Source: Candidatus Omnitrophota bacterium
GTDB lineage: Bacteria; Omnitrophota; Gorgyraeia; JAHJTE01
Direction of reading: 5' to 3'
DNA length: 36,978 nt
NCBI GenBank assembly: GCA_018830005.1
Contig: JAHJTE010000003.1
Location: 265,674-302,651, forward strand
The notes under the pieces were generated by a model, which was not told where the DNA came from, did no database searches, and worked only from the letters and a program-made list of their open reading frames with translations. Both the position numbers and the translations under genes were made by a program. This document shows, piece by piece, positions 3,170 to 36,978 of this stretch; the first letter of the stretch is position 1, and each line of letters starts with the position of its first letter.

Positions 3170-3175
3170 TAAATA

Positions 3176-4005: not shown

Positions 4006-4058
4006 GTTCCCTACACCTCCTTTTATATACAGACGATCTCGAAATGCTAAGTTGTGAC

Positions 4059-4439: not shown

Positions 4440-4497
4440 AGTCTACACCCCCTCAGCTATATTTTACACCCAAATAATGTTTTTTTGGGAATTTTTA

Positions 4498-26800: not shown

Positions 26801-29800
26801 TCTAAATTCTTGGCTCTAATAATACTGCCATCGTCAAGCTCTTTAAATACTTCGCTCCATTCAATGCCTTCATCTCTCCAGATTAGATTATCTTGCTCGC
26901 CTAAATTCTTCTGTAGATAAACTGCCGCACGCCTTCTGCCAGATACGCTTAAATTACTTATCTCAATAGTCTCTTTCGGGATCAATCCTTCACTAAAAAC
27001 TAGGATTAGACCATTAATAATGTGTGTAAAATAGTACTTTCTTTTAGCGCCAAAGATGAATTGCCCGTTATTGCCAGTAGAGATAATTGCACTATTCTCG
27101 CTTAATTTGATATCTTCCGGAAATTTATAAAGGTATGTTGCAATTATTGATCCTTGCATATCAAATATCTCATTATAAACAAACTCACTTTCAAGGCATG
27201 CAGTTAGTATTTCTTCAAGTTCTCCAGCTGATATTGTTCTAGCTTTACCTCTAATGTTGCCTTTTTTATCTATGTTAAGTCTTTCTCTGTAAAAGATATT
27301 CCTTAGAATAATTGGATAACCGCTCAAGCTTTTAAGCTTAATCTCTATTTGTTTTGGCAAATTATTTATTGCCGTCGCACATAGTTTAATATATGCCTGG
27401 TCCTCAATTATCGATGCGCTACGAATCAACTTCGTACTATCAAAACCTCTGGTTATCATTAGGCTTGTCCTTGCCGAAGCAAAGTAAACACTCGAATTGT
27501 AATCCCAAAGCCGAATCTTTCCATCTTCATCTGTAATCACGCCGTTTATTAAAAGATTATTGTAACCTTTCTCATCCATAAGTTCATCTATCTTATCCTC
27601 TATCATCTTTTTAGGCCGCTTGAAACCACCAGGGAGAGATATCTCTCCAACTTCTGCACCGGTTAGAGTATCAATAAAGATTATATGATCATTTCTTAGC
27701 CTGCGCTTGTATTCTTCAAGTTCTTCTTCTGTTGGCAGCAGCCTTTCAGGAATATCCTCTATAAAGTCGGGGAATGCCTTACTTAATTCTCTTAACTTAG
27801 CCCTCACAAACCTATCTATCTGGTAATTACTACCACCCAGGTAGAGTTTTAAGATTTTGATAAGTTCTTTCATCTTCACAGTATCTGTCTCTGCTACAGC
27901 TAGGGCATTTCGGATAAGGCGTTTGAGGGAAGGGTTTGCTTTTTGAGTGTGTTTGGTATCAGCTAGGCAGGTTAATCGCTTAAGGTTAACTCCTCCAGCC
28001 AGCATGCCGGCGATTAGCGTGTTGTGTGCTACGAAGTCCTGAGTGGTTCGACAGAACTCACCATAAACGAGCGAAGCGAGTCGAAGGATGAGTTCTGAGT
28101 TCTGGGCTAAAAGCGCAAGACCCAAAGCGCAAAGCGCAACAGCTAACATTAAAAACATTGTGCCAAAAAGCATGGAACTACGCTTTCTCTCAGCTTGGGT
28201 GTTATTGCGCAAATACGCATCAAATTGGCCTGAAGCGGACATGGCTTTAACATCACTCCAGAAATAAACCCGAATTTGCTCATCTTTAAAATCACAATTA
28301 GAACCATTTCTTAACCTTGTAGAGCCGTCAAAATAGAAGGAATATTTAAGGTTGAACTCTTCCCTATCTAAATATTCTCTTTGATCTTTAGAGATTGTTT
28401 GTGCTAACAACTCTAGATCTGCCCTCTTCACAATACCTTTATTCTGAAATGCAAGATCACGTATACAGTAGAGCAATGAATCTGGCCAAGGTCGGCTTAT
28501 ATCAAGATAAAATGGGATGTGAATTTCGCAAATATCTTTCTCTGAAGAGAATATTCTATTAAAGGCTTTTGAAATATGTTTAAATGTTGTAAGTAAACAA
28601 TATTCTATAGCTCCGCCAATAAGGACAAAATTATTCTGATGACTCTTCTTGAACACTTTGTCTAACCATCTTAAATCCAGCCACTTTAGTAGTAGCAATT
28701 TATTAACATCTGTAAATTCAAATTGTTTTCCCAGCGCTTCTGCGCTATCGCTAATATCATGAACCTGAACTAAATGTAATGGATGCATGGCTGTCCTTAT
28801 ATGATCATAAGCCTTATTAGATATTAATATCCCACCCAGGCCGGCGGTTAATGGGCTGTCTGTCCCGAGTGGCTGTAAGGAGTCTAGAGATGGTAGGTCC
28901 TGAGTCGCTTTTTGGCTCTGTATCTCTATTAATTTTTTATTTGTAATCCGTTGTGAAGGTGTTTGTAAATCTTCAGAGTAACTATAAAATCCAAAACAGT
29001 ACACTGCGCTACTATTTTTTGTATCAAAGGTGATGTCGGTAAAGGTGGTACATAAAGAAGGAAATAACAATCTTATATTTTTATAGCCCTTACTGGCTAA
29101 ATGATTAATTATTCTTCCTCGAAATGCAAATAATTGCCTATTGTGTTCTAATTGGAAATCATCGAATAATGCCAAGCCGCCAGCATGAACTTCTATTTCC
29201 TCGCCGTTGCCCATATCCTCATATGCAATATCTATCAATCTAATTGCCTCGTCTAATTCTACCCTCCTTTTATGGATAGGATATGTCCTCTTATTCTTAT
29301 GATTATGAATAATAACGAACACACATGGCCCTACGGAGAACCTAAAAGGTTCTTGATCGTCTATTAAGTATTTATCCGTGGCTAACGGCATTGTAACATC
29401 TGCAATTGCATCATAAGTCCTCCCTAAGCCAGTCCCACCTATACCAACAAACTCTCTGTCCTTTTCTTTATCAAGCATAATTTCAGTATTATCAACCACT
29501 AAGATTACTTTTTGAGAGTCATCAAGACTTCTATGAGTACAAACAGCAATGCAGGTAAAGACCAATAGCTCTAAAGCAATTATAATCAGAGCAGTATGAA
29601 AACTCCCTGGGCCGGCTAAATTCAAAGTCTGCGCCTGGCCTGATGCGCTAGAGAATAAATCGACAATCCCTATAGTTAACCAGAAAGACAATATCAACCC
29701 ATGTATTAAGTCATTATCGAGTTTTTTAATTTGGGTAATCGCTACTATTCTAAACACCTTATTAATTACTAAAGACTTATTACCAAGCAGCATTTGTATA

Positions 29801-32800
29801 TAATCTCTTAACTCCTTCCTTGTCTCATTATTACCTTTACCTAAAATCTCTGAGAGAAATGCCTTACAGTATCTATAAGCAAGGGCTTGAAAACCTCCAT
29901 CAATAGCTAAGGCTAAAAGTATTGCCTTTAAACGATGCAGACTATTTATATCTTTAAGCATAGCCAAGGCCTGATCATAGTTTTGCCTCTTGGCTTCTCT
30001 GGTAAAAGGAAGACTCGGCATAACTCTATTATTGGTTGACTTTCTCTCATATATTGCTAAGTCCTCAACAATCTCAGGATAAATTGATACTCTTCTTAAA
30101 TTTTTAAAGTGAATCTTATCCAGGCAAGGCATGTATATGACTAATATTGATTCCTGGCCTAAGCCGGACACAGCATCTACCTTATTCAATAAATTATCTT
30201 GACGCTCTGACCTATCATAATAATAGAATATTAGTCTGAATCCGCTAATATCAAAACTCATATCCGTAAGGTTTGCCAAATCCAATATCCGTACCTCTTC
30301 TTTTGGCGAAAATTTTGGCAAGACGGTTTTAACAACACCTTTGTTAAGAATGCTTCGGATATGATTAGGGGGTACGTCGTAAGTTTCTAATAAATTACGT
30401 GGTAGCTGTCGAGGTGAAATCTTCTGGCGATTATCATTCATCGCCGCTAGAAAAACAACCCCAGTGCTACTTGTGTCCCAGTTAGGCAGGATATCAAATA
30501 CAAGATTCCAGATAGTAGGCACTAAGATAAGACCTACAGCAATTATCAAAAACAGGCTGCCGAGAGTGATGAAACCCCTGTTGCCATCTTTATGTTTTGA
30601 CTTATTTTTTAAAGGTGGTATTATTTCTTCATAGCTGTAATGTCGGACATTGGGATGACCTTTTCTACCGGTCCAACCAACGCCTATTTCACATGGGTAT
30701 CCTTTATATATACTGCTGCGATAATCACTGCCAATGGTATATGTCTTCTGGTCATTAGGATGTTCTTCGTTCCACTTCTCTATAAGAGCCAGAAGATGAA
30801 TTCTGTCTCTGGTTCTGTACAATTTATGGTCAATTTCCAGACCGTCAAGCCCCCTCTTAAATAATTCAAATATTTTTTCATCGCTAGCATCTTCCTTCTT
30901 CTTGCCGAAAGCTCCCGGATGCGCATAAATAACAACACCACCAAATCTATGGGCCCAATCTATTACTTCTTGGACAGATGAATAACGCTTAGGTTGTGTC
31001 TGAATTAAATCTTGCATATTCTCTTTAAATTCTTGCAAATCAGGAAAATAAACTAGCATATCTCTCATAGAATCTTGATCCTTGGTTCTGATTTCAAGGC
31101 CTGGTATAATTTCCAGACTCGTGCCTTTTACTGCTTTTAGAGCTTCTCTAAAAGCAGTAAAACTAAATCCGTCCTTGAGATGGTCAACAATAGCGATGGC
31201 TTTTAATCCCTTTTTCAAGGCTTGGCTAACAATATCTATAGGGCTCAAATCACCGTTGTCAAAGCTTGAGTGTATATGCAAATCTACTTCATTTACTGAA
31301 GCAATGCGTTTTTCCTCTACCCCAGATACAAGTAGCCGGTCCATGCTTGTAGAATTCGTATCTGTCTTTTCATCAAAGACGCCGGCAAATGACTGCCACT
31401 TTCCTGTTCTCAGATAAATTGCATACTCAGTTAAGCGGATCAAGAGATCCTTTAGCAGGCCTTCAAGTTCATTTAATTTAAGGTCTACCTCTCCTTCACG
31501 CACATGCGTATTCTTACTAATAAAGCTCTTTAATTGCTTAAGCGAACTCTTTAGGTCAGTAACTATTTCAGAAACAGATGGTTTTTGCTTTGCTACCTTA
31601 TTTATTTTCTTGCTTATTTTATGTTTTCTGATTAGTTTGAAGCTCTGCCTTAAGGCTCCTATCCAATCATATTCTTTAGGAAAGATACGTTTCTTTTTAA
31701 TAAAAGTCTCTTTTCTTAAGTCTTGGATATGCTGATTTGCCCCATCTATATATTTATAGATTTTTTTCAATACAAGAATCGTCTTTTCTGACTCAGGTAT
31801 CTCACCAAATATATCTTCAAATATTTTCTTAGCTCGGTACTCTGGATTATGCCTGCGTTTCTCTAAAATTGGTTGACGTATTCCACATACAACTATTGCA
31901 ATACATGCTAACCCAAATGCTATGAGTAATATATTTTCAAAAATAGATAAAGGGAAAAAATTAAACATCACACCCGAAATTATAACAGCGGTAACAAAAC
32001 ATATGCTGAAGTGTGTTGAAATTAATCTGCCAAAATTCTTTAGGAATAAACGTATTGAAAATCGTTGGCCTGCTTTTTTATCAGATGCAGAGAAAGTATC
32101 ATATACTGCAAATAGCAGGTTAAGAATAGCCCAAGCGCCTAGATAAGGAGAGATATGTTGCAAAAATCCTTTCATAGCAGGACTTAGCGCCAGCGGCAAG
32201 CTGTCTAATAATCTGCTTAATAATAAATCTACGTCCTTAAGACTAGAGAGAATAGATAGGGTAGGCGTAAGGTAAGAGATGAAAGATAAGGGAACAAAAC
32301 TATGAACTATGGTATTGACTAGATAAAGTGGCGGTGCCTGCGGCTGCAGTATGTCTGTAAGTATTTCCTGCGTATGGCCAGTCTCAAAGCTAAATAACCA
32401 CGCCACTAAAACCGTACACAATATTAATGCCAATTTAGCAAGGCTAATAAGCTGCTTGGGATTTGTAGTTTGCGTTTCTTTAGAAGCAGGTAAAGGCCTG
32501 GGGTTGAACTTGTCCCTGTCCAAAGGAAGCCCTGAGAAAACCTTAATAAGGCAATCAATGTGAGAACCGCAAAAATATGGTGCTTTTCTGTCATCTCTTG
32601 CACTGCTTAATCCTAAGACCTCAAAGTGGGCGCTGCTAATTTGGTAGATCCACTGCATTAATATACTCTTCTCTTCTTCTGAGAGTCTGCTAAGATTATC
32701 ATAAGCTTCAATGATATGAGGTGTTTCCCTACTGAGTACCTCCCGAACATTGCCTATGCCTTGCGCAATTCCATCTTTCCATCCATATCTTTTAATCCAA

Positions 32801-35800
32801 TTATTTCTTCTAAAATCCTCGAAATCTTTCCTGGTTAAACCTAATTTATAAAATACTGCTACTAAGGCATCTATGTAGGAACCATTAAAGCAAGAGACAG
32901 TATCTTTATCCATCACGCTAGCTAATTCCCAAATTAGGAAATGGCCTCCTGTTATATACAGGATACTGGTCTTTAAGACCTCTTTTTCTCTATCTGATAA
33001 GTTCTTCAGATTATCATATCTATCTATAATATCCGGCCTATATTTGCCAAGAAAATGTCTCGCATTCTCTATGGATTTCTCAAGAGTTGACCAGTCCAAA
33101 GGAAAATCAAATCTAGTTAAGTTAAGTTCAGGGAATAAATCAATAAGAACACCAATGTGAGAATTGTATTCAAGGTTAGTCCTCTGATCCCTGGCACCAG
33201 AAAGTCTCCAATTATCAAAGCAACGCTTGGTTATTCTGCAGACGTCGTATCTTAAAGCCGCCTGTTCCTGAATCGACAGATTCTTAAAGTTAGTATATCT
33301 TTCTATAATGTCAGGTCTGTATTTGCCAATAATATCCCGTGCGTGCTTTAGTGTGTTTTGCGCAATTCTATAAGGCCATGCATCTGAATCAGGCAATTCT
33401 AGCTCTAGGCCTTGTTCAGTTAGAAGATGCGATACAGAGGCAACATTGCCTTCATTATCAAGGACTAGTTTATTTTCACCAATTTTTTCTCTGATTTTTT
33501 TACCCTCTCTTAAATACACACCAACAATTACTTCATTATTGCTGCTCTTTAATACCCCCCAATATACTTCTTGCAGTGCATAAGGCAGATAGCCGCCCAG
33601 GACCTTGCCAGCAAAAATCATATATATGTTTCCTAAGGCATCCACCCGAGCCGGAACAAGCCGTGGATAAGGTCTTCGACGTATACTCTTAAACCACTTA
33701 CTGCATCTAGACCCAAGCTCTATGCGCATAATATATTCTTGAGGGCTTTCATAAACTCGTGGTCGATCAGTACCATTTTTCACTGAAATTTCAGAGCCGT
33801 TGCGTCTAATTCTATAGTAGCGCTGATATGCTAACTCTGCTCCCCTTGTACTTAATCTATAGAATCTTAATATAAACCAGTCTCTGCCTCTCTGGCCCGC
33901 AGCAATCCTTATCTTTTGGCCTCTTGAGTGCTCTGGTATTTCAAGTCTAAAATTATCATTTATTTTTATGTCAGAATTAAAAATGTCCTCGATTGGTTCT
34001 GGCTGTTCTACTTTAGCACCTCCTAAGATGAAGGCCCATAATTGTTTAGTGAATCTTTTCCTGAGTGCCTTTTTGATTTTTCTGGCTTGTTTTTCTTTCT
34101 CTCTTCTACTTAAAAATTCACTATACCCGTCTTCCCCATAAAGATATCTTGCAACTCTATCTATTGCCTTCTCTATAAGTATCCGGATATCTTCGCGGCT
34201 ACGACCACCCATTTCTCTTCCAATCTCAACAAGGCTATTATCTTTAGACTCTAGCTTCTTAGAAAGGGCACATCTTTGAAGTTCCGTAAGTTTGGCCTTT
34301 GATAAAATCTCTGCTAATTTTCCCTCACGCTGCATAACTTGAAGACTAGCCCATGGATCTTTAGCACTAGGATCTTGAACTTCGTCTATATCGCCTGTTC
34401 TGTAATATCGCTTTATATTGGAAGAGGCTATACAGGAGGAAACATCTGAAAGCCTAAGTAGTCCAGAAGCGGTCTTAGCGTCCACTCTCAGATAATCCAT
34501 GATTTCTAATTGCGTTGGTTCTTCTAAGCCTTCCTCTAAGCCCAGCATTACTTTAAGTTTTATAACAGCTCTTTTTAGATTGAGCTCTCTATAAGGAGTA
34601 AATCCTAGAAAATCATATACTTGCCCTAGAGTCTGATACCTTGCATAATCAATGAAACTTTTGCCTTTGCTGTAATCAAAATATTTAAATGCTACTAATC
34701 TTAAGGCCTCACGTATAAAGTCCTCAAATCTCCCCTGGGTTATTCCTAAGGAGTATATTCTACTTTGAACCAACTTATACCCGAATTTAAAATAAATAAA
34801 TCCTTCTGCGTCTCTAAGATATAAATTACCCAACTCCTCTAATGCCTGCTCATCAGCGTCTCTTTTATAACGCCTAAGTAAGATCTGTGCCTGAATGGTT
34901 TTGTTGTCTATGCGACATACCAAACCATCATAAGTCCAGCTGCTATTCGGATGAAGTGCTGAATGTAAATTTAGCCGTCTAAAGCATGCACCCTTTAAGT
35001 AATGCGCAAGGGGATGTCTCATCTTTTGAGCGTTGCCATTACCATTAATCTCATCTAAAACATTGGGCTTAAAATATAAGCTGTTTATTTTAAACTTCTG
35101 CTCTAAGATAGCTTTCAAATTTAGCAATGTTGCTATTTGCCAAGATGCCTCTACTTCAGCAACAGCCTTAGAATCACTCCTTCTATATCCATTAGTCTTA
35201 ATATCAGAGACTAAAAATGAACTGGCTTCTTTGCCTTCAATATTTACAAACATACCAGTAATGCGCCCATATGAACCATTGCCATTAGAATGTGCCAAGG
35301 CTTTATTATCTTGAAAAGGATAGACGTCAATATATATTTTACCATTAGCATTTCCAGGCTGAGTTGCCTTAAGTCTTGCCTCTGTTCTTATATCTCCATA
35401 ACCCCATTCCAATGCGGGGTTTGCCTTTATTGCTGCTCTTAAGGTCTGTAGGGAATTTCTCATACCTTTCTTAGCATTTAAACTAGCAAGCACCCCAGCA
35501 AGAAACACCTGTTGGCTGGAAAAATAACCAGAAACAAAAGACTGAATATCAGGATTAAGTGAGAAAATGATTGATGCTTGATGGTTGATATTTGAGAAGA
35601 AAGGAAGAACTTGCGAGAGGTAATTTGTTACCGATGAGAAGAATTGACCGATAACTAATGCTGGTGGTGCCTGGGGCTGCAGTGTGTCTGTAAGTATTCC
35701 CTGCGTATGGCTGATTTCAAAACTAAATAAACACGTCAATAAAAGCAAAGATAATATTAATGGCGATTTAACAACCAGACCAAGACGTTGGGTATTTTTG

Positions 35801-36978
35801 GATTTTGTTGCTTTGGAACCAGGTGAAGATTTGACAAGGGCCTTAGTTTTTCTTGAGGGCCCATCTCTGCCATATTTATTTCTATATGTAGTATCTCTCC
35901 TGTTGAAGACTGTAATTTCTCCTTCTCCCCTAAATTCAACTTCATTTTCGCCTATCTTAGTTCCTCTTCTTATACAGGTTCCTGCAAGGGAATAATCTTT
36001 CCTAAGATAAACTCCAAAGATTACTCTAGCCTTATCGCTATACAAAGGCCTATAAACAACATCTGCAAACAAATAGCGCTTATATCCACGCAGGAATTTC
36101 ATAGAGCCCTTCCATTCAAAAAGAGGGATACTACACCAAACACCTATTACTCCAGGCACATCTTCAAGACAGGGTTTTGTTCGTTTTCCTTTAAACCATT
36201 CAAAAACAGCTCTCCTTGCCTTAATTCGGCTACGATATTCTTCTCCAGTCTCCCAGATTCTAGGACTTTTACCTGGCAGAAAACAACGCAATTTTACTTG
36301 TTTCTTAGCTTTCCTTTCAATAATATAGTATTGACGATATAATATCTCTTCTGTCTTCGGATCAAGAAATCTCACCATTAAGTAGTTAGTATCCCTCTCC
36401 TCAGCAATAATGCGAATATGCCTGCCTTGAAGATATTCTGGTACTCCAATAAAGAGACCTTTACCTAAATATAAACTTGTATTAAAATAACCTTCGATTG
36501 GCACTAAATCTTCTTGAGCGTCATTTATGATAATTGATGCCCACCGCAGAGCCTCTTCTCTGATTGACCTCTTGAGCATACGAGCTTTCTCTTCATTTTC
36601 AGAAAAGGCATTAAACCATCTCCTTCCATAGAGTGAAATTAGGACTCTTTTCCTTGCTTTATTTCTAATCTGCCGTACTCCTTCTGAGGTATTGATATCA
36701 ATTTGCTCTATAATTTCCCGATATTTTCTACCTGCCAGATATGCCTCTAGAACAATTATTTCTCTCTCAGTTAAATCAGCTATTGAGAGGGCCTGTTGTA
36801 ATTGACCTCTCTCATATTTATCTCTAAGTATAGTATTTGCGTCCACTGCATTTGGATCAGGAAATGCATCTATTGAACCTGTAGCGTGATATTCTTTGAT
36901 TGCTGCATTAAGTATATTATTGCCAGGCTCTCCAATGCCAAGTAGACGACAGGCAATATCCCATCCTACATCTAAATA
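5827..36978 (-). CDS. Giant multidomain membrane-anchored protein (at least 10,383 aa; likely 5'-truncated by the window)
   Basis: ORF track gives 10,339 aa from a GTG at 36844-36846. My reading of the 44 codons 36847-36978 finds no in-frame stop. Ends in TAA TAA TGA at 5821-5829. Recognisable domains along its length argue that it is real. Confidence 0.95.
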   Translation of the reverse strand, partial: YLDVGWDIACRLLGIGEPGNNILNAAIKEYHATGSIDAFPDPNAVDANTILRDKYERGQLQQALSIADLTEREIIVLEAYLAGRKYREIIEQIDINTSEGVRQIRNKARKRVLISLYGRRWFNAFSENEEKARMLKRSIREEALRWASIIINDAQEDLVPIEGYFNTSLYLGKGLFIGVPEYLQGRHIRIIAEERDTNYLMVRFLDPKTEEILYRQYYIIERKAKKQVKLRCFLPGKSPRIWETGEEYRSRIKARRAVFEWFKGKRTKPCLEDVPGVIGVWCSIPLFEWKGSMKFLRGYKRYLFADVVYRPLYSDKARVIFGVYLRKDYSLAGTCIRRGTKIGENEVEFRGEGEITVFNRRDTTYRNKYGRDGPSRKTKALVKSSPGSKATKSKNTQRLGLVVKSPLILSLLLLTCLFSFEISHTQGILTDTLQPQAPPALVIGQFFSSVTNYLSQVLPFFSNINHQASIIFSLNPDIQSFVSGYFSSQQVFLAGVLASLNAKKGMRNSLQTLRAAIKANPALEWGYGDIRTEARLKATQPGNANGKIYIDVYPFQDNKALAHSNGNGSYGRITGMFVNIEGKEASSFLVSDIKTNGYRRSDSKAVAEVEASWQIATLLNLKAILEQKFKINSLYFKPNVLDEINGNGNAQKMRHPLAHYLKGACFRRLNLHSALHPNSSWTYDGLVCRIDNKTIQAQILLRRYKRDADEQALEELGNLYLRDAEGFIYFKFGYKLVQSRIYSLGITQGRFEDFIREALRLVAFKYFDYSKGKSFIDYARYQTLGQVYDFLGFTPYRELNLKRAVIKLKVMLGLEEGLEEPTQLEIMDYLRVDAKTASGLLRLSDVSSCIASSNIKRYYRTGDIDEVQDPSAKDPWASLQVMQREGKLAEILSKAKLTELQRCALSKKLESKDNSLVEIGREMGGRSREDIRILIEKAIDRVARYLYGEDGYSEFLSRREKEKQARKIKKALRKRFTKQLWAFILGGAKVEQPEPIEDIFNSDIKINDNFRLEIPEHSRGQKIRIAAGQRGRDWFILRFYRLSTRGAELAYQRYYRIRRNGSEISVKNGTDRPRVYESPQEYIMRIELGSRCSKWFKSIRRRPYPRLVPARVDALGNIYMIFAGKVLGGYLPYALQEVYWGVLKSSNNEVIVGVYLREGKKIREKIGENKLVLDNEGNVASVSHLLTEQGLELELPDSDAWPYRIAQNTLKHARDIIGKYRPDIIERYTNFKNLSIQEQAALRYDVCRITKRCFDNWRLSGARDQRTNLEYNSHIGVLIDLFPELNLTRFDFPLDWSTLEKSIENARHFLGKYRPDIIDRYDNLKNLSDREKEVLKTSILYITGGHFLIWELASVMDKDTVSCFNGSYIDALVAVFYKLGLTRKDFEDFRRNNWIKRYGWKDGIAQGIGNVREVLSRETPHIIEAYDNLSRLSEEEKSILMQWIYQISSAHFEVLGLSSARDDRKAPYFCGSHIDCLIKVFSGLPLDRDKFNPRPLPASKETQTTNPKQLISLAKLALILCTVLVAWLFSFETGHTQEILTDILQPQAPPLYLVNTIVHSFVPLSFISYLTPTLSILSSLKDVDLLLSRLLDSLPLALSPAMKGFLQHISPYLGAWAILNLLFAVYDTFSASDKKAGQRFSIRLFLKNFGRLISTHFSICFVTAVIISGVMFNFFPLSIFENILLIAFGLACIAIVVCGIRQPILEKRRHNPEYRAKKIFEDIFGEIPESEKTILVLKKIYKYIDGANQHIQDLRKETFIKKKRIFPKEYDWIGALRQSFKLIRKHKISKKINKVAKQKPSVSEIVTDLKSSLKQLKSFISKNTHVREGEVDLKLNELEGLLKDLLIRLTEYAIYLRTGKWQSFAGVFDEKTDTNSTSMDRLLVSGVEEKRIASVNEVDLHIHSSFDNGDLSPIDIVSQALKKGLKAIAIVDHLKDGFSFTAFREALKAVKGTSLEIIPGLEIRTKDQDSMRDMLVYFPDLQEFKENMQDLIQTQPKRYSSVQEVIDWAHRFGGVVIYAHPGAFGKKKEDASDEKIFELFKRGLDGLEIDHKLYRTRDRIHLLALIEKWNEEHPNDQKTYTIGSDYRSSIYKGYPCEIGVGWTGRKGHPNVRHYSYEEIIPPLKNKSKHKDGNRGFITLGSLFLIIAVGLILVPTIWNLVFDILPNWDTSSTGVVFLAAMNDNRQKISPRQLPRNLLETYDVPPNHIRSILNKGVVKTVLPKFSPKEEVRILDLANLTDMSFDISGFRLIFYYYDRSERQDNLLNKVDAVSGLGQESILVIYMPCLDKIHFKNLRRVSIYPEIVEDLAIYERKSTNNRVMPSLPFTREAKRQNYDQALAMLKDINSLHRLKAILLALAIDGGFQALAYRYCKAFLSEILGKGNNETRKELRDYIQMLLGNKSLVINKVFRIVAITQIKKLDNDLIHGLILSFWLTIGIVDLFSSASGQAQTLNLAGPGSFHTALIIIALELLVFTCIAVCTHRSLDDSQKVILVVDNTEIMLDKEKDREFVGIGGTGLGRTYDAIADVTMPLATDKYLIDDQEPFRFSVGPCVFVIIHNHKNKRTYPIHKRRVELDEAIRLIDIAYEDMGNGEEIEVHAGGLALFDDFQLEHNRQLFAFRGRIINHLASKGYKNIRLLFPSLCTTFTDITFDTKNSSAVYCFGFYSYSEDLQTPSQRITNKKLIEIQSQKATQDLPSLDSLQPLGTDSPLTAGLGGILISNKAYDHIRTAMHPLHLVQVHDISDSAEALGKQFEFTDVNKLLLLKWLDLRWLDKVFKKSHQNNFVLIGGAIEYCLLTTFKHISKAFNRIFSSEKDICEIHIPFYLDISRPWPDSLLYCIRDLAFQNKGIVKRADLELLAQTISKDQREYLDREEFNLKYSFYFDGSTRLRNGSNCDFKDEQIRVYFWSDVKAMSASGQFDAYLRNNTQAERKRSSMLFGTMFLMLAVALCALGLALLAQNSELILRLASLVYGEFCRTTQDFVAHNTLIAGMLAGGVNLKRLTCLADTKHTQKANPSLKRLIRNALAVAETDTVKMKELIKILKLYLGGSNYQIDRFVRAKLRELSKAFPDFIEDIPERLLPTEEELEEYKRRLRNDHIIFIDTLTGAEVGEISLPGGFKRPKKMIEDKIDELMDEKGYNNLLINGVITDEDGKIRLWDYNSSVYFASARTSLMITRGFDSTKLIRSASIIEDQAYIKLCATAINNLPKQIEIKLKSLSGYPIILRNIFYRERLNIDKKGNIRGKARTISAGELEEILTACLESEFVYNEIFDMQGSIIATYLYKFPEDIKLSENSAIISTGNNGQFIFGAKRKYYFTHIINGLILVFSEGLIPKETIEISNLSVSGRRRAAVYLQKNLGEQDNLIWRDEGIEWSEVFKELDDGSIIRAKNLEVKKPARIHFNYEMYNLDSNKFKYGDSAVAWFVKSNGRLLLLYYMKLEDYEACHFDAYVGEYVSACSGGNVFETFYHRFPTPAQIQTMFKQYNTDELRIENRLTTLEGTLKICTSKGSGDYIDYWIGLKKEPLAVWMDKYSGLPQLAMRLKDLRAANYDATAYKLSVKEGRGLVQKVTLKEFLVEEIPLAKHVRLELKRRGELLGRLLVSPIEEVLSKYPHLIKVALDLFTPLGRIDDIGDIGTLSNNLKERLGPLDSLRGVNDLGRIREIFNRLSEDLGCESISILKEVYGAEKDLSIKLIIFILLRNQLDLLKFGNHSDEIVNLRIDMHEAIESEINNIKILLEKVVDYREVVDLIIRYSQLMMAEQIDIEFRKGLFNYRNSKEIEEIGSAICDKTLEYTASSKKEILEIYYQLIPDSDWDRRVANLTKLIFELRDATTLDSIEVLAESFNKVIDRDLLWLPILASLCEEEKDLQTKLVIFSSLENRLLLASSDVKKEGHNQTRFERMFSCLIEKKFVEVNSLLANANSWNKVLALTAKYMYLKRVVDINISLLKGDIYLPNIDHLQEIEAALPERAFKYNTTDGIRKIIKTFSKELFVAVGENSIVRAKRLERRIDACFWLAARIEIYNKNKVRHAFMELPSKWQAIFYVRIKERVPIVVTGSLFNATFTSISKRLGETIRGLTYAENITPQLRRDFKEVLSEVCSDLDDDYLRNIYRDFLYEYKEEQIDRLFKGAKKYFTPRHNCLVNQVVKEVRRQRRLLLVRIRQVAQGRNSNTPFDKTMADHLLRPLAESCSRSLLDFRTEDLRTLYLRFAFNFEYKELARIFGLSQRAIMDRINLVVSKLMKDSGFFKDSVIEGLSIIFKRLAENDGYKADVEKALNISCIEILRKRAMQIGYELPLSNGNGYMGNGNGRGVRLIKYSRRVLRLLEKTNNVSKVSEGFGLSELDLAQEAFDVYQRNFVSQGSNTVGSRIVILQLLDRLYDKLKIIEPVQVRLWKQGLLGDIELHLKQIEAILRKADPTEFERALKIVGEVEFTFNLANVLDYGTIHRLENRLALIKKEIRRKKGTIPAGIESLRSEIKYDLSRAFALVDNGCLNGNSYNLFKIILKVIANKILTLGRLEDDFDSYQSNRTYYIPELRLLAACIQINMAREKGSNFASLRFKDMDTATILEPCAMGVLKANGQMYKEYEDRTYYELGKAWAGGHVVRYKDLPKKVKDRIDPEIARTLEQENFYFILGTTEPNIWYFTQDIFLNAVTIHKAKGKVKAGAYIPVTLLGLSVSEKVINYELSHLQGAKEDKTESEALAKEVQEAWQSDHIASLKRLTCLGDTQHTQKANPPLKHLIQNALIQAQRDDRMKEFIPILKSFLDGSNYEIDRFARKILLGLKPRFYRQLADVQPRSLRAGLTREDLIELAEDDKLVFIDAETGKKLGKLPALRAGNKFKKYPESRDEMINRLMDDEGHSGLYVLGVTVNRHGRLLRVLGKSPSVLFAHAKTAILITKNSAGEKLIRKTLILEDCSEDSEYIDKCLKAVEDLRGKGNIATKYLKGYARILGNLCVNERFSLDREGNVKWKNQTIQFSELKGLFQDYLRQGEIYSEIFDIDGNLISVYRAQFPKNIKLTKNVVITSTDNQGRFNFPCNEQLRKTGTVDDLILVFNVDTAPLEFIAVSNIDKFETSLESHRLTYLQRNITEEDKLICIGDRKTEVYRELDDHSVVRHMNLKAKERKGMVGIWFNFVFYILDRDKFEEGDRMVAWFEKVNGEFWLLYCQKLKDYLVLRPDIDVFEYAVTFDEHGNVLNSTKKGFPSPDEIKEMFNKYGAKYIRSEGAYTNSRGHLRRQHRVDGVDCNFHRNIGIKNEPLALWFDKLSGLPVLAVKLKDLRSANFNTTVYKLSVKDSKGLVEAQRLRTFLKEDILLAITIRLAFERNERILLRLSSYSIKEVFKKYPNLATIIANIDTNELRRRMLIRKVRRGDKAASAQFCEENDPLIRWIVKRSPAIKAFLKFTTMEDILQMGRYFLQYIITDERYAFDAGFNFSSYAVPALRGLILNGLKEQYSLDFNAEASFKKTDRWQSRAFCSLSKFEVERASLARHNQLESMLDRGNDSIVAKARECLADLSIEFPYRVMAFNMKLGLEDDVVYSYGEIAAYLFGLGVKGENGDQFTGETIRLWFNFVKEKLLIKLCGNAQAKKTIEKDKKRRDNKKEIAREWDSYFKSNMKGDPPLGLYILVGVAGYIWISKNLQITDYKEHAGAEVFVDIDKNDISEGCCAVNVFNGRGTSIGRHYVEVKKGKVIKCLDMQISQRIADFKERLRVRDKWANWMQLPFERKPPEEALVRIVYSGGRRRGAGIAVPVPNNSSVHISLPPELIGQELKVEVKGSGFNWHLWRVATLRDVVVVGGIIRKDNNKGGLIHNKLNNNLLILSRLNKEERNNILALFEDEVLAVRGRRSKGIKALEKLQSTIEGEVGDLRQSIGNGYDICQHWLLLRQLEIIKIYKASNGHSVPRPCGMGVLKADGQMYKEYEDRTYEELETAWDDGRVVGVRNLYSNFFVQIEPYQEILKALEKRGVFIVLPDPKKDPREMPSVWYKSLKIFLAAVTIKKSKGKVKSGIYIPLTLILLLVKFKRVGLLKEILKHELDNLKGKKENKHRSERLAEQVLSVWKEEERERRRSRKQAARLAEAILKPGSKITIHKLKLEEQNALARAAHEGDGQAQDALRQLLYFYAETLAYKWQWTFSCKDILGAFDKAIPKIITNYNPDRPNGSNLKSLAYKKFGQIRIDLWRKASRRRESPLDESLEQPSLAMCEEELEYILDELLRPVKIRGGNPGRDRLIFKIRIMGRLCGKEVSYREIGVHFNLEKSSVCIQYSQVSKCVISHYAKKPLPRSLVGRLDIERWRALLNYFIQNSKNNNSLSVGPKKTSGKVKGNSRQYFPEDPSTADMFFGSIRKAHYRKEERSSENKRKGPPVKWTRQILSEAFRNPPTEIKDVRSSSQWEDAGYRGIIKVAIRIYGSWHKFLESQGIKPIERKEWTEQTLSEAFRNPPTEIKDVRSSSQWQEAGYRGMVKVTFRIYGSWLDFVKSQDIQPIEKKGRIPKWTEQTLSEAFRNPPTEIKDVRSSSQWQEAGYGGMVEAVRRIYGSWLDFVKSQGMKPCCESCVYQKFTQHYDNPKVVKDILNGKTKVKSEDMSLEQQVKLAKEVQKGNLAAYQALMYSLEWLAKKISKEYRLKYFNLDSDQRLSACLKAIPGIVARFDPEKWDKTIGAYAYKRFMGSIDDKARSELRREKRENTSSLDRSLNEKDERGRRPQTLLDKLIPEEQLPELTQQEAETRLKELLKPINASERNKQMFILAALHRSGIINMNQEEIARQFNCSPSNISRNYKSITRKLGLISNNSHLARSTHEDVESPQIKRHHHFPEAPTAADMFFGPVRVAHLRRESSRKKTSGALYYFGGGKACGRASMRSALGGKGANLAEMARLDLPVPPGFTIPNKIVRRYDENRNSLPKGVSELIFQGVSEIERRTKKVFGHVKKFGDLKNPLFLSVRSGAEESEPGRYKTYTKIGLHRITLDAYGREIGDMHRAYLDFLLYFMSYIAECVSQDDAGFDEGVNKIVDEIPSLRENYYMDRYDILPKLISLDKLKEMVLKAERLFEQKTGKKFPTPKRQLMLAVKSVIQSSYFVCGAACNIQAYVFGNIGDEKSGSGVIFTRNPLNGEKGIYGSFKFNAEGSEVVGRLKIVDNILCKWDRPEGLDALQKYLPQQYLELEEFALLLEKHFYEIQDIEFTIQNGKLFILQTRGNEKFSTPLARVRILLDFVKEGLISEEDALGRFREEEYEDCSNFDVPSSVRLEHLWWTKTYLESPVLRKDLERKPIASGIIVLPGIVSGPIITDCTNPKGRKGIAVIFNVMEFERLQTITPEAIERRISGAISYGGGFADYIVVRMRGAQKIIPHLTRINLQIHSNTVKFSRTNAEVKIGSWLILDGNTGHVYKGKLSSKDLEDSEITKVNKGMIRKRDSELHPYYDTLLKWIIILEVDEILIREIKKRGQWSWEEDIILEKGLTLSNEELFNILKEGNTLGALADKIRGDNKKVAIFRKELQLAIKKIKKENATRGAIKDKLALELKKRLLSEQVCGNSPQNGGVSGGMLYRLAKQGNANELARIMKAYLEYHLQQIRECKFGIIELDFPCLVSSLVSIIDSKPVLLPILKKAFEILLEDYNVQDRHLIFELFFEYESHEILRLGEVLMSDIYKQRLSWAVTWDYFEIAAHPELLLSAWLANMMSPLAWKIIKRKTKGRSTAQSLRSLEGHLKHYYVNTFSTSDRPEGCRWGWTTIDFKKAALGDEVVGQIIDRLDQFFSVDEGGYGGFSTTTAYRQGYRARMKNEIIELMHAYRRIRHDNKAEGKCASFATLDAAFLSLISIFTQVPFEKIFIFGTQIHFAVFIDIDEGYVFSNLYWYSKKKFKELSENIDWYREFAAPCTDSFVSFSGIFNSVLGISTMSKDTVVKFYKRLSEFFGAEFNIPDLSGIRFIDRRGAPINIQDFDSAETLQKYAFNLAEEYFEYEAALYAFRSLKVKYPEVYAAKALEETHTKDNARFMYSLDDAIRFVRNIQGFKSVFGSLDRIMLPDEVLAFVTGSHRDKALLLWTLLYYMNERNMEDRELMCVVFAEDDSFVYVNGTFISTRTFEKSIEIPESIKYIFDEKGHYDCNIFNGHILMATDAKLVYSEKDNDEEDAEDPQNKRHHHSQETPTTTDIFFGPIRKAHWPGYSADNENTEDGSNDYPRRLKALMRREKYFYCLTGKGVDLERREVVKRFSAKVDLVGPLAFLKHMFTFQVTRECNTWCPHCLFVYCKPQRKLNWKQKEKMYRDLLEFAENDPRFKEICIGGGEPLSFAKEDVLFLLENSRKPNILQTNAKFASTPGSARDSLSEVYKIIKAKTDATSDYYFILNTSLDSFHQRTIPISNIANLVQVIAEDFPEISLVIRSLHEPDVHKRLGVLKSELKRRGFAVKTKVEEKISIRGRNGKKQKVVRTIYWTLIKNRREYRFIVGVDFVSRLGFAELLNEECYLGDYGTTENFINGKRTDYYGQDVDYCYLPQTVTVNCDGNVYYYCTAIPCFGNVYDEDITTIIDISKNDPLIYFLAFEPYLLYQLTLEIEPDFIAIAKQCPHPDDIMYEILKSPARRLYLTERFIQLYYEKRSEELDESFLSDLGIPDSQEEIIEEYRKNMKEGKAAIASKNGGVSGGMLQEWLRRGDLEALVRAIDRYIDWVLNYEIDVEGEQDQTPEMSRGAKYSYLFRTLEKIIRQSKLPSKKRRHYVSTLKDVFRELAGKYKVEKAENAFVWLLNQSPLRVRDAGELLLRYIEPGEQRRRRLYREIEIGNQEALVQFVEENKGLIQNIIHSTPRIGFLLGLYDEEELLVAGICCLTEILKGKKRYDFTQDTKLSTFLAPMIKDGIYTAFIGKSIERDKVSLDDERRVEGGELLAGEMFLSEISLEAYKLKEAKEDGDQDVTERGARLIEYLGDYALIEPNKALAFSFFCGLEDGNPHTKEEITYILYDMGIRNQDGEKYSDLTIGNWIKKAREYLLKREFDVGEAKKILEIEKEDNKNVKKARKDWQAFVASNVKGRVPQWLPIWIDKNGAIYIIPTMNALSGYKKYANRKGYTGIDERGDNYCVIVVFNESEVPIGREFVELENGKVKSIEKMQPGETILELKKRLSTEEQLNDWFNSRFTSKLPEGYIERKATSHQRIGACLVRLFSKSTITSYLSISYKLDGQMIKIQARAAGLNWGLLGVYTQGDNNVTGFLFLTNSDGKISRRKLNHRALACRKLNSDERKIVGELLEKEVFTPRGRRRKTPNALSQLKARIETEIRDLRLMDTDKYDICEHWLLSRQLEIIKTYEDSLLDSRDGDIPGSTDGHVFYYQEPVGESPVGKRIRMMLHDAGLGLYRSGNDTEIYLPQQGSLDYFMSAYTFRWVYSEMTEEEFKETCARLINFFGRDRMRYAFSRNNAAFSHNLVRIYKFGIDEFERLARHIDLEIVGKGFENNEEWFINSLNILIANERDLVWLKDLEEECSYLINMEGTNIDGYLERARQTLVGLGKMDAILASKDRDKILTKVLLSILLFRQNLLISLISKEEYRLLVYKILIQACFSEKYDNASSYFIFGIPYIKGTSFATSYFVSTCAHELDHNIFSGDCFISEIISDLGGFSILEQIGWSEDIEESQVILEYGRFKKDFALVLRTREHHYCARTQLQWIIEQLESVDYTRLFRLALMIVKKGPWMRFSIFVLELLRQYGQEIAGPSEELDPVVSEMSEKLRKGRDRLITPEEIRRIIRVFQPSDPRNGGVSEKPADIETYTLNSITDVADPLTWEILSKDLIKAMAYAATIIELGPETRFRLYEALRKEDYAGEYIAIDLAGNIADYSDEGFNYFPPDGPGDIYDIDFMHKVIEGSKSPTIIVSDAAIRYLYPEDMGFKLGNSESERQRAELLAEVFDSYPGIDVHFHLFPAVLDDKRYEEISRVYKLMAQRGWRVIRLTVKDKYDTLWIFIRPSVDMPGSLVQFLGQLNDAKLSRLIQDIVRELRQYENQIRRIHPALSIFGSASVGEADSIYNDTQDLVRKLDGNGYSIVTGGGPGVMRAANSVATSRPSVGLQIQCPKEEGNEFVDIGLMFKYLFARKRAFIDLSVGALCMPGGFGTLDEFFEIASLKDQGHINDFPLVLFDNVSRKFYQGLEERMRDLSERGLLRKRPKDLFVVLDSSQRILRYLEDEACLEKLNANNNVDIEQVIRDLYRTLKRIEKVVPAFGIVGSELVSETSPEYEQARQVTKGLANSDISVIYKGHRGISAAAAQGYKDVKGTNSQCISLLLKGNRDHSNHASMNLGFSYTFEQKMALIRHSSLGFVFLQGGTGTLDILFEVLCLMQLEKIEQVPVVLLGRDFWQPWHTWFKKTLLPAGVIVEEDLNRYRIVDTYQEAVAIIEDFYLGRLL
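5830..7030 (-). other. Tandem LOG-family (TIGR00730-like Rossmann) domains at the giant protein C-terminus
   Basis: Copy 1: SIFGSA, TGGGPGVM, FARKR, PGGFGTLDE (6688-6714). Copy 2: QGGTGTLDI (6049-6075), degenerate. Confidence 0.85.
7140..7740 (-). other. Class I SAM-methyltransferase-like domain
   Basis: IIELGPET, YIAIDL and GDIYD spaced like motifs I-III. The glycine-rich motif is imperfect. Confidence 0.4.
7790..8700 (-). other. HExxH zincin-like metallopeptidase domain
   Basis: AHELDH at 8221-8235 with a downstream Glu (ISEIISD, 8188-8190) as candidate third zinc ligand. Confidence 0.5.
9088..10692 (-). other. Sigma-70-like domain plus beta-rich domain, copy 2 (535 aa)
   Basis: GNQEALVQFVEENKGLI...YDFTQDTKLSTF (region 2), GLEDGNPHTKEEI (region 4), then a domain ending YDICEHWLLSRQLEIIK. 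Paralogous to 19294-20904. Confidence 0.75.
11400..12312 (-). other. Radical SAM domain with Twitch/SPASM-like tail
   Basis: CNTWCPHC (CxxxCxxC, 12253-12276), GGGEPL, LQTNA, SLDSFH, and C-terminal YC...VNCDGNVYYYC...FGNV. Confidence 0.88.
12650..13700 (-). other. Transglutaminase/papain-like Cys-His domain followed by a degenerate second copy
   Basis: GKCASFATL (Cys 13576-13578) and IHFAVFI (His 13477-13479). Second motif PDEVL...GSHRDKALLL resembles GDCxDxAxLL with the Cys lost. Confidence 0.5.
14700..16455 (-). other. Truncated pyruvate phosphate dikinase-like module (ATP-grasp plus phospho-His swivel domain, no PEP-binding barrel)
   Basis: LGGKGANLAEM, LPVPPGFTI, LSVRSGA, VFGN...SGSGVIFTRNP, QDIEFTIQNGKLFILQTR, LDGNTGHVY. 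Confidence 0.9.
16624..17232 (-). other. Sigma-70-like domain (regions 1.2-4)
   Basis: LEQQVKLAKEVQKGNLAAYQAL, ARFDPEK...IGAYAYKRFMGSI, SSLDRSL, NQEEIARQFNCSPSNISR. Confidence 0.82.
17332..17877 (-). repeat. Three tandem in-frame repeats (183-195 nt; 61-65 aa) resembling homing-endonuclease-associated repeats
   Basis: Units start at Trp codons 17875, 17692 and 17497. Consensus WTxQxLSEAFRNPPTEIKDVRSSSQWxxAGYxGxxxxxxRIYGSWxxFxxSQ. Near-identical DNA. Confidence 0.92.
18160..18702 (-). other. Sigma-70-like domain (regions 1.2-4)
   Basis: LEEQNALARAAHEGDGQAQDAL, NYNPDR...NLKSLAY, SPLDESL, VSYREIGVHFNLEKSSV. Confidence 0.78.
18799..19263 (-). repeat. Unknown module C, copy 2 (paralog at 22846-23265)
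   Basis: PCGMGVLKADGQMYKEYEDRTY...IFLAAVTIKKSKGKVKSGIYIPLTL...LKHELDNLKG. DNA 19201-19238 is identical to 23203-23240. Confidence 0.9.
19294..20904 (-). other. Sigma-70-like domain plus beta-rich domain, copy 1 (537 aa)
   Basis: GDKAASAQFCEENDPLI...FDAGFNFSSYA, GLEDDVVYSYGEIA, ending YDICQHWLLLRQLEIIK. Confidence 0.75.
20938..22824 (-). repeat. Unknown module B, copy 2 (629 aa)
   Basis: Begins LKRLTCLGDTQHTQKANP and ends LAVKLKDLRSANF...YKLSVKDSKGLV...KYPNL. Collinear with 26137-27984. Confidence 0.9.
22846..23265 (-). repeat. Unknown module C, copy 1
   Basis: PCAMGVLKANGQMYKEYEDRTY...IFLNAVTIHKAKGKVKAGAYIPVTL...INYELSHLQG. Confidence 0.9.
24259..24390 (-). other. Isolated sigma-70 region-4-like HTH
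   Basis: EDLRTLYLRFAFNFEYKELARIFGLSQRAIMDRINLVVSKL. Confidence 0.7.
26137..27984 (-). repeat. Unknown module B, copy 1 (616 aa)
   Basis: Begins LKRLTCLADTKHTQKANP and ends LAMRLKDLRAANY...YKLSVKEGRGLV...KYPHL. Confidence 0.9.
28950..29420 (-). other. CheD/deamidase-like Cys-His domain
   Basis: SVGPCVFVIIHN...YPIH (Cys 29323-29325, His 29272-29274) and EIEVHAGG resemble the CheD pattern GLGSCVxxxxxD...H...xxFGG. Confidence 0.45.
30600..31295 (-). other. PHP-family phosphoesterase domain (TrpH/YciV-like)
   Basis: DLHIHS, AIVDH, IPGLE, YAHP, LDGLEI, GSDYR. Confidence 0.88.
32329..32450 (-). repeat. Linker motif A, copy 2: hydrophobic helix + LFSFExxHTQxILTDxLQPQAPP
   Basis: 56/64 nt identical (hand count) to 35667-35730. 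Confidence 0.9.
32506..33369 (-). repeat. Three diverged tandem repeats of 93-105 aa
   Basis: KYRPDIIERY (33324), KYRPDIIDRY (33045), RETPHIIEAY (32730). Each is followed by NLS..E...L...I....F...L and ends Y/FxxSxIxxLxxxFxxLxLxRxxF. Confidence 0.85.
34150..34882 (-). other. Sigma-70-like domain with regions 2, 3 and 4
   Basis: DEQALEELGNLY, FDYSKGKSFIDYA, EEPTQLEIMDYL, LTELQRCAL...SLVEIGREMG.RSREDIRILIEKAIDRV. Confidence 0.85.
35662..35766 (-). repeat. Linker motif A, copy 1
   Basis: SPLILSLLLLTCLFSFEISHTQGILTDTLQPQAPP. Confidence 0.9.
36643..36774 (-). other. Sigma-70 region-4-like HTH
   Basis: LTEREIIVLEAYLAGRKYREIIEQIDINTSEGVRQIRNKARKRV. Regions 2-3 may lie upstream of the window. Confidence 0.75.

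Follow-up and report, generated by a model that had tools for sequence, protein, structure and literature searches.

The stretch of DNA analysed here, which we call the window, comprises 36,978 nucleotides (nt) of a Candidatus Omnitrophota bacterium genome (contig JAHJTE010000003.1, positions 265,674 to 302,651 of the forward strand) and is nearly filled by one frame on the minus strand. This giant open reading frame (ORF) contains two in-frame copies of a short element, linker A, in which a lead-in rich in lysine and arginine (K/R) is followed by a hydrophobic helix and by the motif LFSFE-x-(S/G)-HTQ-x-ILTD-x-LQPQAPP. Counted from the first GTG (window position 36846), from which all amino acid (aa) numbers given here are taken, the frame extends over 5827-36846 and holds 10,339 codons. 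It stays open up to the window edge at 36978, and the 44 codons 5' of the GTG are homologous to aa 798-842 (for example IKEYHATGSIDAFPDPNA vs IKRYYRTGDIDEVQDPSA) and are therefore coding. The true start of the ORF thus lies outside the window, and the giant ORF exceeds 10,383 codons. Pfam recognises a PHP domain (aa ~1855), PPDK_N (aa ~6818-7150), Radical_SAM (aa ~8187) and, at the C-terminus, two Lysine_decarbox/LOG domains, and is silent over most of the remaining giant ORF. The 302,651-bp source contig occurs in groundwater metagenomes. A single contig of one run, at 80x depth, covers the linker region; three other groundwater runs supply contig pieces that are in near-complete agreement with it, one of these contigs carrying 1 base change and 1 missing base. 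The giant ORF and the features that surround and make up linker A are as follows.

5827..36978, minus strand: giant ORF, supported by the open frame, the homology of the upstream codons and the Pfam domain matches
35911..36978, minus strand: unit 1, cut by the window edge; helix-turn-helix of a sigma-like region 4 plus module A, paralogous to aa 798-1136 (self-comparison, TIGR02937)
35767..35880, minus strand: K/R-rich lead-in of copy 1 (aa 323-360), overlapping the start of the helix and proposed to be cytoplasmic; 12 K/R and 1 acidic residue in 40 residues
35719..35784, minus strand: hydrophobic helix of copy 1, LGLVVKSPLILSLLLLTCLFSF (aa 355-376), assigned by hydropathy, with no K/R downstream
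35662..35718, minus strand: juxtamembrane motif of copy 1, EISHTQGILTDTLQPQAPP (aa 377-395), conserved between the copies; the proposed cut would fall at T381/Q382
35473..35661, minus strand: remaining K/R-free stretch of copy 1 (aa 396-458), Ser/Thr/Phe-rich and ending at KKGMR
32452..35472, minus strand: unit bracketed by the linker A copies (aa 459-1465), from self-comparison
32434..32517, minus strand: K/R-containing lead-in of copy 2 (aa 1444-1471), right after the last triple-repeat unit, from the charge count
32386..32451, minus strand: hydrophobic helix of copy 2, LISLAKLALILCTVLVAWLFSF (aa 1466-1487), assigned by hydropathy
32329..32385, minus strand: conserved motif of copy 2, ETGHTQEILTDILQPQAPP (aa 1488-1506), from the comparison of the copies; the proposed cut would fall at T1492/Q1493
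32080..32328, minus strand: downstream membrane region of copy 2 (aa 1507-1589), with further hydrophobic segments and then a K/R cluster at aa 1590-1607, from the charge pattern

An earlier sequence-only reading of the window had placed two copies of linker A inside the ORF and had counted 56 identical positions in 64; both copies were verified at the stated coordinates, on the minus strand and in one reading frame, and the count was reproduced exactly. Copy 1 covers aa 342-398 (SKATKSKNTQRLGLVVKSPLILSLLLLTCLFSFEISHTQGILTDTLQPQAPP), with its core FSFEISHTQGILTDTLQPQAPP at aa 374-395, and copy 2 covers aa 1453-1509 (SKETQTTNPKQLISLAKLALILCTVLVAWLFSFETGHTQEILTDILQPQAPP), with its core FSFETGHTQEILTDILQPQAPP at aa 1485-1506. 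In the DNA, the repeat pairs 32329-32495 with 35662-35828 at an offset of 3,333 nt and in the same frame. The top ungapped 64-nt stretch (32333-32396 vs 35666-35729) is the one with 56/64 identities, and the longer tracts reach 87/105 and 127/167 nt. Against a background identity of 0.276 at the same 3,333-nt offset, the chance of finding 56/64 is P ~2e-23 per comparison, or ~1e-14 when corrected for all pairs in the ORF; the repeat is confirmed as real and statistically solid. Similarity between the copies peaks in the polar motif, not in the helix. In each copy, 5 hydrophobic residues, a conserved Lys and a 16-residue hydrophobic core (22 residues in all) are followed by a 5-residue polar stretch, and copy 2 has 7 K/R between aa 1441 and 1471. 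The basic lead-in, the hydrophobic helix and the shared motif are thus present in both copies, confirming the signal-peptide-like layout that the sequence-only reading had described. That the signal-like segment is internal was equally borne out, the helices starting at aa 355 and 1466 with the ORF continuing further upstream.

Self-comparison also upheld the proposal that the copies bracket a unit with a sigma-like module and a triple repeat (aa 459-1465). This unit consists of an orphan domain (aa 460-640), a sigma-70-like module (aa 640-905), module A (aa 905-1136) and three all-alpha repeats of ~93 residues (aa 1153-1450). The flanks of the two copies had been called unrelated. Downstream this is correct, identity being at the random level, but the units upstream are paralogous, with 30-34% aa identity (aa 14-312 vs 842-1136). 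These units 5' of the two linkers are old paralogues, and in copy 2 the ~300-residue triple repeat lies between unit and linker. The stretches aa 396-640 and aa 1505-1850 gave no family beyond weak, chance-level matches in Pfam and NCBIfam.

The giant ORF alone contains at least seven very divergent sigma-70-like modules (minus strand, window 34132-34944, 24232-24879, 20152-20949, 18052-18774, 16597-17289, 9952-10737 and 36600-36978). Only one of the seven, at aa 6520-6750, scores above the curated cut-off of TIGR02937 (49.3 bits); region 4 of unit 1 matches the same model with E 1e-4 and 21.9 bits, below the cut-off of 42.9, and the other modules are recognised by sigma-family E values of 1e-4 to 5e-6 or by signatures only. 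The region-4 paralogue of unit 1 lies downstream of copy 1 and is preceded by a region-2 signature, FDYSKGKSFIDYA, which aligns to a canonical sigma factor at the start of a related giant protein, P0007. NCBIfam searched with short pieces outperformed Pfam and the PDB for these modules: long pieces gave no Pfam match, the best Pfam Sigma70_r4 match had E 0.11, and sequence searches of the PDB returned none. An alignment of five sigma-like modules was too divergent for use.

No Pfam model covers the ~93-residue all-alpha repeat (window 32497-33390, aa 1153-1450). AlphaFold2 (AF2) models one unit as seven helices with a predicted local distance difference test (pLDDT) score of 96, for which Foldseek found no match in the PDB. 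The repeat occurs in 63 representative clusters (P0006-P0068), mostly of very large proteins, the longest of which has 6,811 residues, and its arrays reach ~20 units. In P0007 such an array comes right after the canonical sigma-70.

We searched for further copies of linker A at several scales. Scanning the window in all six frames with a profile of the two copies revealed no third one. Among 5.8 billion proteins, a word-indexed search returned no match for aa 1-1700 nor for the two-copy alignment, and phmmer, run exhaustively with aa 330-1529 on 1.84 billion representatives, yielded 63 matches, all via the ~93-aa repeat and none with the linker; since the giant protein is itself absent from these libraries, copies within other very long or cut ORFs, or in the upstream part of this ORF, could be missed. 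A degenerate DNA pattern for ILTDxLQPQAPP had no viral match. Its sole metagenome match (L003) was rejected as chance: the contig is high in GC, and stop codons interrupt the frame that matches. The sole match from the genome collection (L002) was also rejected, as it is limited to the LFSFE end of the helix, without the motif, in what appears by eye to be a multi-helix membrane protein of respiratory-complex type.

The copies of linker A share a much more recent ancestor than their surroundings. The same codon is used at 23 of the 30 residues that are identical between the copies, against 11.6 expected from codon usage (z = 4.5), while in module A 39 were observed and 37.4 expected. Synonymous divergence (dS, Nei-Gojobori) is 0.28-0.41 for linker A, compared with 1.76 for module A, 2.4 for the stretch after APP and 1.73 for a second linker, linker B. 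The low dS of the linker against saturated flanks suggests a recent homogenisation of the copies over a tract of ~105-170 nt, with gene conversion between the paralogous linkers as its probable cause. The homogenised tract ends sharply after the APP codons, beyond which the copies are not alignable (nucleotide identity 0.38), and fades gradually upstream. In the helix many residues have changed between the copies and hydrophobicity alone has been kept; the 23-codon core (aa 373-395) has a non-synonymous divergence (dN) of 0.08 and a dS of 0.42, giving a dN/dS of ~0.19, albeit from small numbers. The low dN of the core in the face of a changing helix indicates that the sequence of the motif itself matters, and the motif is, by these rates, under purifying selection since homogenisation.

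The distribution of charge around linker A bears on its topology. K and R together make up 14.7% of the giant protein overall, and its two longest K/R-free runs are the linker A regions, aa 361-458 (98 residues) and aa 1472-1536 (65 residues). K/R clusters directly adjoin both runs upstream; downstream, the cluster follows immediately in copy 1 (aa 459-477) and ~55 residues later in copy 2 (aa 1590-1607). According to the positive-inside rule, K/R-rich flanks mark the cytoplasmic side, and both ends of the segment would therefore be cytoplasmic. The neighbouring modules lead to the same expectation. Sigma-70-like, PHP, PPDK_N, radical SAM and LOG domains are of kinds that reside in the cytoplasm, and the paralogous sigma-like modules that flank copy 1 are expected to lie on the same side of the membrane; an even number of crossings is therefore expected. 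The charge pattern fits a membrane-embedded segment with both ends in the cytoplasm, and not an export signal.

About eight strongly hydrophobic segments were identified in the giant protein, all within aa 355-2914, and the linker A helices are the two most N-terminal. Their Kyte-Doolittle means over 19 residues are 2.18 (copy 1) and 2.40 (copy 2), and an additive Hessa-type sum, calculated with approximate scale values, gives +1.6 and -1.1 kcal/mol, respectively. Rather than serving as a secretory signal, the helix is most likely a signal-anchor with which a membrane hairpin begins. An AF2 model of unit 1 plus linker, built from a two-row alignment, is of low confidence (mean pLDDT 46) and gives a weak hint on helix boundaries: one helix runs from the membrane core through HTQGILTD, breaks at LQPQAPP, and is followed by helices at aa 395-423 and 433-469. 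Elsewhere in the same ORF, segments at aa 1608-1656, 2091-2139 and 2376-2438 follow the same plan of a K/R cluster, a strong helix, a K/R-free stretch and K/R again.

We hold with moderate confidence that linker A is a duplicated membrane-insertion cassette in an inner-membrane-anchored giant multi-module protein. The K/R-rich lead-in would remain cytoplasmic and the hydrophobic helix would act as a signal-anchor, crossing the membrane from inside to outside. E-x-(S/G)-HTQ-x-ILTD-x-LQPQAPP would then form a short segment exposed on the periplasmic face, and the K/R-free, weakly hydrophobic stretch would return the chain, such that the next module is again cytoplasmic. In this way the cassette would tether successive cytoplasmic units (sigma-like module, module A and alpha-repeats) to the membrane while exporting nothing. 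The evidence favours such a signal-anchor at the start of a hairpin with a lineage-specific loop motif, the hairpin being duplicated and, it appears, recently homogenised.

Several observations weigh against this model. The candidate return helices are weak, with Kyte-Doolittle means below 1.5 and Hessa-type sums of +5 to +7.5 kcal/mol, and make the number of membrane crossings, and hence the topology, uncertain. The three helices of the low-confidence AF2 model would amount to an odd number of crossings if all of them span the membrane. The sigma-like module of the bracketed unit has no family-model match of its own, and its identity comes from the region-2 signature and from its paralogue. 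The 16 strongly conserved residues past the helix call for a specific role that the hairpin model does not name. The case for gene conversion comes from one genome, the four runs carrying virtually the same sequence. What the analysis shows directly is the repeat, its uniqueness, its pattern of charge and hydrophobicity, the difference in dS and the hairpin analogues of the relatives; the topology of linker A, the gene conversion, the absence of cleavage and any particular role of the motif are inferred.

Among known systems, linker A recalls a Sec signal or type II signal-anchor, with which it shares the positive lead-in, the hydrophobic helix, the short polar stretch, the small residue at -3 and an implied N-in/C-out orientation. 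It differs in lying >398 and >1,509 residues from the N-terminus, in having Thr at -1 and in the 16-residue conserved motif after the helix. In addition, a K/R-free hydrophobic stretch and a K/R cluster follow, and the downstream part is probably not exported.

The host protein resembles, in its domain content, the Archaeovorin-type giant proteins of Omnitrophota. These contain many transmembrane segments and have PPDK_N, Radical_SAM and Lysine_decarbox among their 20 commonest domains (West-Roberts et al., bioRxiv 10.1101/2023.11.21.568195), and such giant proteins have been described as inner-membrane-anchored (Nielsen and Lui, bioRxiv 10.64898/2026.06.07.730766). The present ORF likewise exceeds 10,000 residues, comes from groundwater, has transmembrane segments between modules as well as PPDK_N, Radical_SAM and Lysine_decarbox domains, and is mostly without detectable homologues. 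Unlike those proteins it shows no SecA-DEAD, C39 or S8 peptidase, HEAT or glycosyltransferase domain in the part within the window, its N-terminal part lying beyond it. A word search of both preprints found no mention of sigma-like modules or of repeated linker motifs.

Giant proteins that share the ~93-aa repeat also carry hairpins between their modules. In one of them, P0025 (4,328 residues), two paralogous hairpin linkers (aa 1363-1449 and 1928-2009) are 43-54% identical within unrelated flanks, and each is composed of GKGxRRG, a helix, LIQPHAAAGAQGL, a second helix and K/R. As with linker A, there are two copies per protein, the flanks are unrelated and the motif, LIQPHAAAGAQGL, is rich in Q, P and A (compare LQPQAPP). 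The P0025 linkers, which were compared as protein, differ from linker A in having no significant sequence similarity to it, a longer loop and a clearly hydrophobic second helix. P0025 provides an independent replicate of the finding, and giant proteins of this class seem to use repeated hairpin cassettes, each with a conserved loop, as building elements.

Shorter motifs also recur between the modules of these relatives. In P0010, RA[EK][VLA]R (mostly RAEVR) is found 16 times, and one pair brackets a stretch that by eye is receiver-domain-like. GARL occurs 20 times in P0034, 19 of them as GARL[AST], and R[SA]ELR, ASSLG, SNPAML and GASLG occur 6-8 times each in other relatives (P0012, P0027, P0028 and P0059). 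These recurring motifs look like cleavage or junction sites.

The sequence-only reading had taken linker A for an internal signal peptide. Of this interpretation the tripartite, signal-like layout stands, but the sequence downstream does not look exported, as it contains a K/R cluster and then a sigma-like module. If the helix were nevertheless cleavable, signal peptidase I would act where each helix reaches the periplasm, cutting behind (S/G)-H-T, and the giant chain would be a polyprotein, which we consider unlikely; it is no more probable that the upstream unit keeps the helix as a C-terminal anchor while the next piece starts with Gln, possibly as pyroglutamate. The basic lead-in, the 16-residue core after the conserved Lys, the 5-residue polar stretch, S/G at -3 and Thr at -1 would all suit such a cut, and an inside-to-outside helix puts the site at the periplasmic face, where signal peptidase acts, as it does under the hairpin model, which thus leaves a cut sterically feasible. 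The 16 hydrophobic residues of the core, or 22 residues with the preceding stretch, compare with about 7-15 in the h-region of a signal peptide. An internal signal-like sequence is reportedly cut in the Bradyrhizobium FbcH cytochrome b/c1 precursor. The small residues claimed at -3 and -1 hold for S/G at -3, but the -1 residue is Thr, which signal peptidase I tolerates yet which is rare at its sites, and positions -4 to -6 hold no helix breaker. Three related giant proteins have N-terminal signal peptides whose sites, by eye, appear to be ordinary ones of the A-x-A type (P0008, VFA/L; P0028, ALA/Q; P0010, TSA/L; the slash marks the cut). Conservation in linker A is strongest at +1 to +14, a region that signal peptidase does not need, and the sequence that follows is not an exported domain. 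The authors who described the Omnitrophota giant proteins suspect post-translational cleavage (bioRxiv 10.1101/2023.11.21.568195), and the motifs that recur up to 20 times between modules of related giant proteins do so in the way expected of cleavage sites. In Bacteroidetes, substrates of signal peptidase I as a rule carry Gln at +1; however, this rule is reported to be specific to Bacteroidetes and absent in related phyla (PMC5837995), and its restriction to that phylum counts against applying it here.

Other sorting signals were considered and rejected. For a lipoprotein signal (signal peptidase II), the candidate sites LLTC in copy 1 and ILCT in copy 2 are unaligned and have no small residue at -1, and no lipobox of the form [LVI][ASTVI][GAS]C is present at the helix end. 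Neither lead-in contains the RR of a Tat signal. C-terminal sorting signals (LPXTG, PEP-CTERM) would require the reverse of the order basic, helix, motif, and the position of linker A is internal.

A wider form of the processing idea, to which we give little credence, is that the giant ORF encodes a true bacterial polyprotein with the conserved linkers as processing sites, a cut at the periplasmic face followed by intramembrane cleavage freeing the sigma-like units and enzyme modules. The first cut would be made by signal peptidase or by a dedicated enzyme, and RAEVR (16 times) and GARL (20 times) would play an equivalent part through different recognition sequences, which we hold to be similarly improbable. 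Flavivirus polyproteins (PMC6756788) offer a parallel, as signal-like hydrophobic segments inside a long translation product separate functional units. For these polyproteins and the FbcH precursor, however, there is proof of cleavage, and the domains beyond the signal-like segment are lumenal or periplasmic, whereas linker A is known from its sequence alone.

Regulated release of the sigma-like unit is more doubtful again. Here a specific protease would cut the periplasmic motif and a site-2 protease would then cut in the helix, freeing the unit into the cytoplasm in the manner of membrane-tethered sigma and anti-sigma proteins. The presence of a sigma-70-like module upstream of each linker A copy would suit this scheme, as would the purifying selection on the motif, which exceeds the needs of a plain anchor. 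For RsiV, the site-1 cut is said to be made by signal peptidase. A precedent is IutY of Pseudomonas putida, in which one transmembrane segment joins a cytosolic sigma domain to a periplasmic domain, and Prc and RseP release the sigma domain (PMC5411451). In IutY and in the linker A units alike, a sigma-type domain is held at the membrane by a transmembrane segment C-terminal to it. Yet IutY has a large periplasmic, signal-sensing anti-sigma domain, whereas linker A has ~20 conserved residues, after which the chain probably returns and another unit follows. Scans with Pfam and NCBIfam families detected neither a periplasmic sensor domain after the helix nor a protease domain in the part of the ORF within the window. 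Moreover, 230-560 residues of other modules separate the sigma-like part from the helix, and the sigma-like modules are very divergent, with 1 of 7 above the curated cut-off.

The low dS of the linkers might instead reflect a nucleotide-level element, such as an internal promoter in this >31-kb gene or a junction sequence for module shuffling, but we regard this as very improbable. Linker dS is 4-6 times below that of the flanks, and another linker of the ORF, linker C, also shows excess codon identity (z about 3). Both copies further share a promoter-like pair on the coding strand, TTGA(A/G)A, 16 nt and AATACT (35720-35693 and 32387-32360). However, this pair scores 9/12, such sites are in no excess (13 vs 10.1 +/- 3.2 in shuffles), and the hexamers sit in codons fixed by conserved amino acids. 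An RNA element was rejected as well: the folds of both copies are no more stable than those of shuffled sequences (z = +1.4 and +0.6), Rfam has no match for linker A, and no RNA run contains the linker region. An internal translation start after copy 1 was discarded too, as M462, the first Met downstream, has no convincing ribosome-binding site ahead of it.

That the repeat reflects a chance match between hydrophobic segments, or an error of assembly, can be set aside: although transmembrane helices often match spuriously, as in the only public-contig matches (L002 and L003), this reading is refuted by the corrected P of ~1e-14, by similarity that is strongest in the polar motif, and by the agreement of the 80x contig with three more runs.

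Descriptions of bacterial genes with 10,000 to >100,000 codons are recent; according to their authors, it is unknown whether the products act as single chains or are cut, and the missing cleavage points block structural analysis (bioRxiv 10.1101/2023.11.21.568195). Linker A would provide two exact, conserved candidate positions at the membrane surface for the processing of giant proteins. The charge argument suggests that at least some of the 'transmembrane' elements of giant proteins are hairpins that keep modules cytoplasmic, which bears on the contested localisation of their enzyme domains. The dS contrast further indicates that concerted evolution of short linkers is possible within a single giant ORF whose surrounding modules diverge to saturation, a clue to how such genes are assembled and maintained. 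Should linker A be merely a tether, it would be a tidy and modest piece of anatomy.

Three other linkers recur in the giant ORF. Linker B (27884-27985 and 22724-22825; LKRLTCLxDTxHTQKANPxLKxLIxNAL) has 68% protein identity and saturated synonymous sites (dS 1.73), and is thus, unlike linker A, conserved at the protein level only. The sequence-only reading had pointed out that HTQ also occurs in the linker of module B, and the tripeptide is indeed present in both copies (aa 2966 and 4686). These two independent occurrences compare with ~0.45 expected, as estimated from typical residue frequencies, which is not significant, and the second linker B copy has no helix nearby. Linker C (12498-12597, 16482-16581 and 17928-18027; HHHxxExPTxxDxFFGxxRxAH) precedes a triple repeat, PPDK_N and radical SAM. 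Linker D, NGGVS(GGML), at ~14373, 11079 and 7758, follows PPDK, radical SAM and an HExxH-containing module. An HExxH sequence, HELDH, lies at 8221-8235 (aa 9538-9542) inside a 60-residue K/R-free stretch of an orphan module, and could be a metalloprotease centre, although no family model supports it.

A second triple tandem repeat is located at 17332-17879 (aa ~6316-6528). Its units are 93% and 85% identical in DNA, and the repeat is on this account very young; it has a weak match (E 3e-4) to a Pfam homing-endonuclease-associated repeat.

Near the other end of the window, the plus strand carries a nucleotidyltransferase gene and then a HEPN-like gene (2570-3583), the usual toxin-antitoxin layout, and 992-2155 holds an AAA_14/DUF4143 ATPase gene. 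Three PilZ-domain genes (window 3676-5814) come directly after the 3' end of the giant ORF. On an unrelated contig (L004, 7366-12519), the gene of a protein with the ~93-aa repeat (P0029) likewise neighbours a PilZ gene, immediately upstream of it, and is followed downstream by a GGDEF gene. This recurring neighbourhood suggests a link to cyclic di-GMP (c-di-GMP) signalling.

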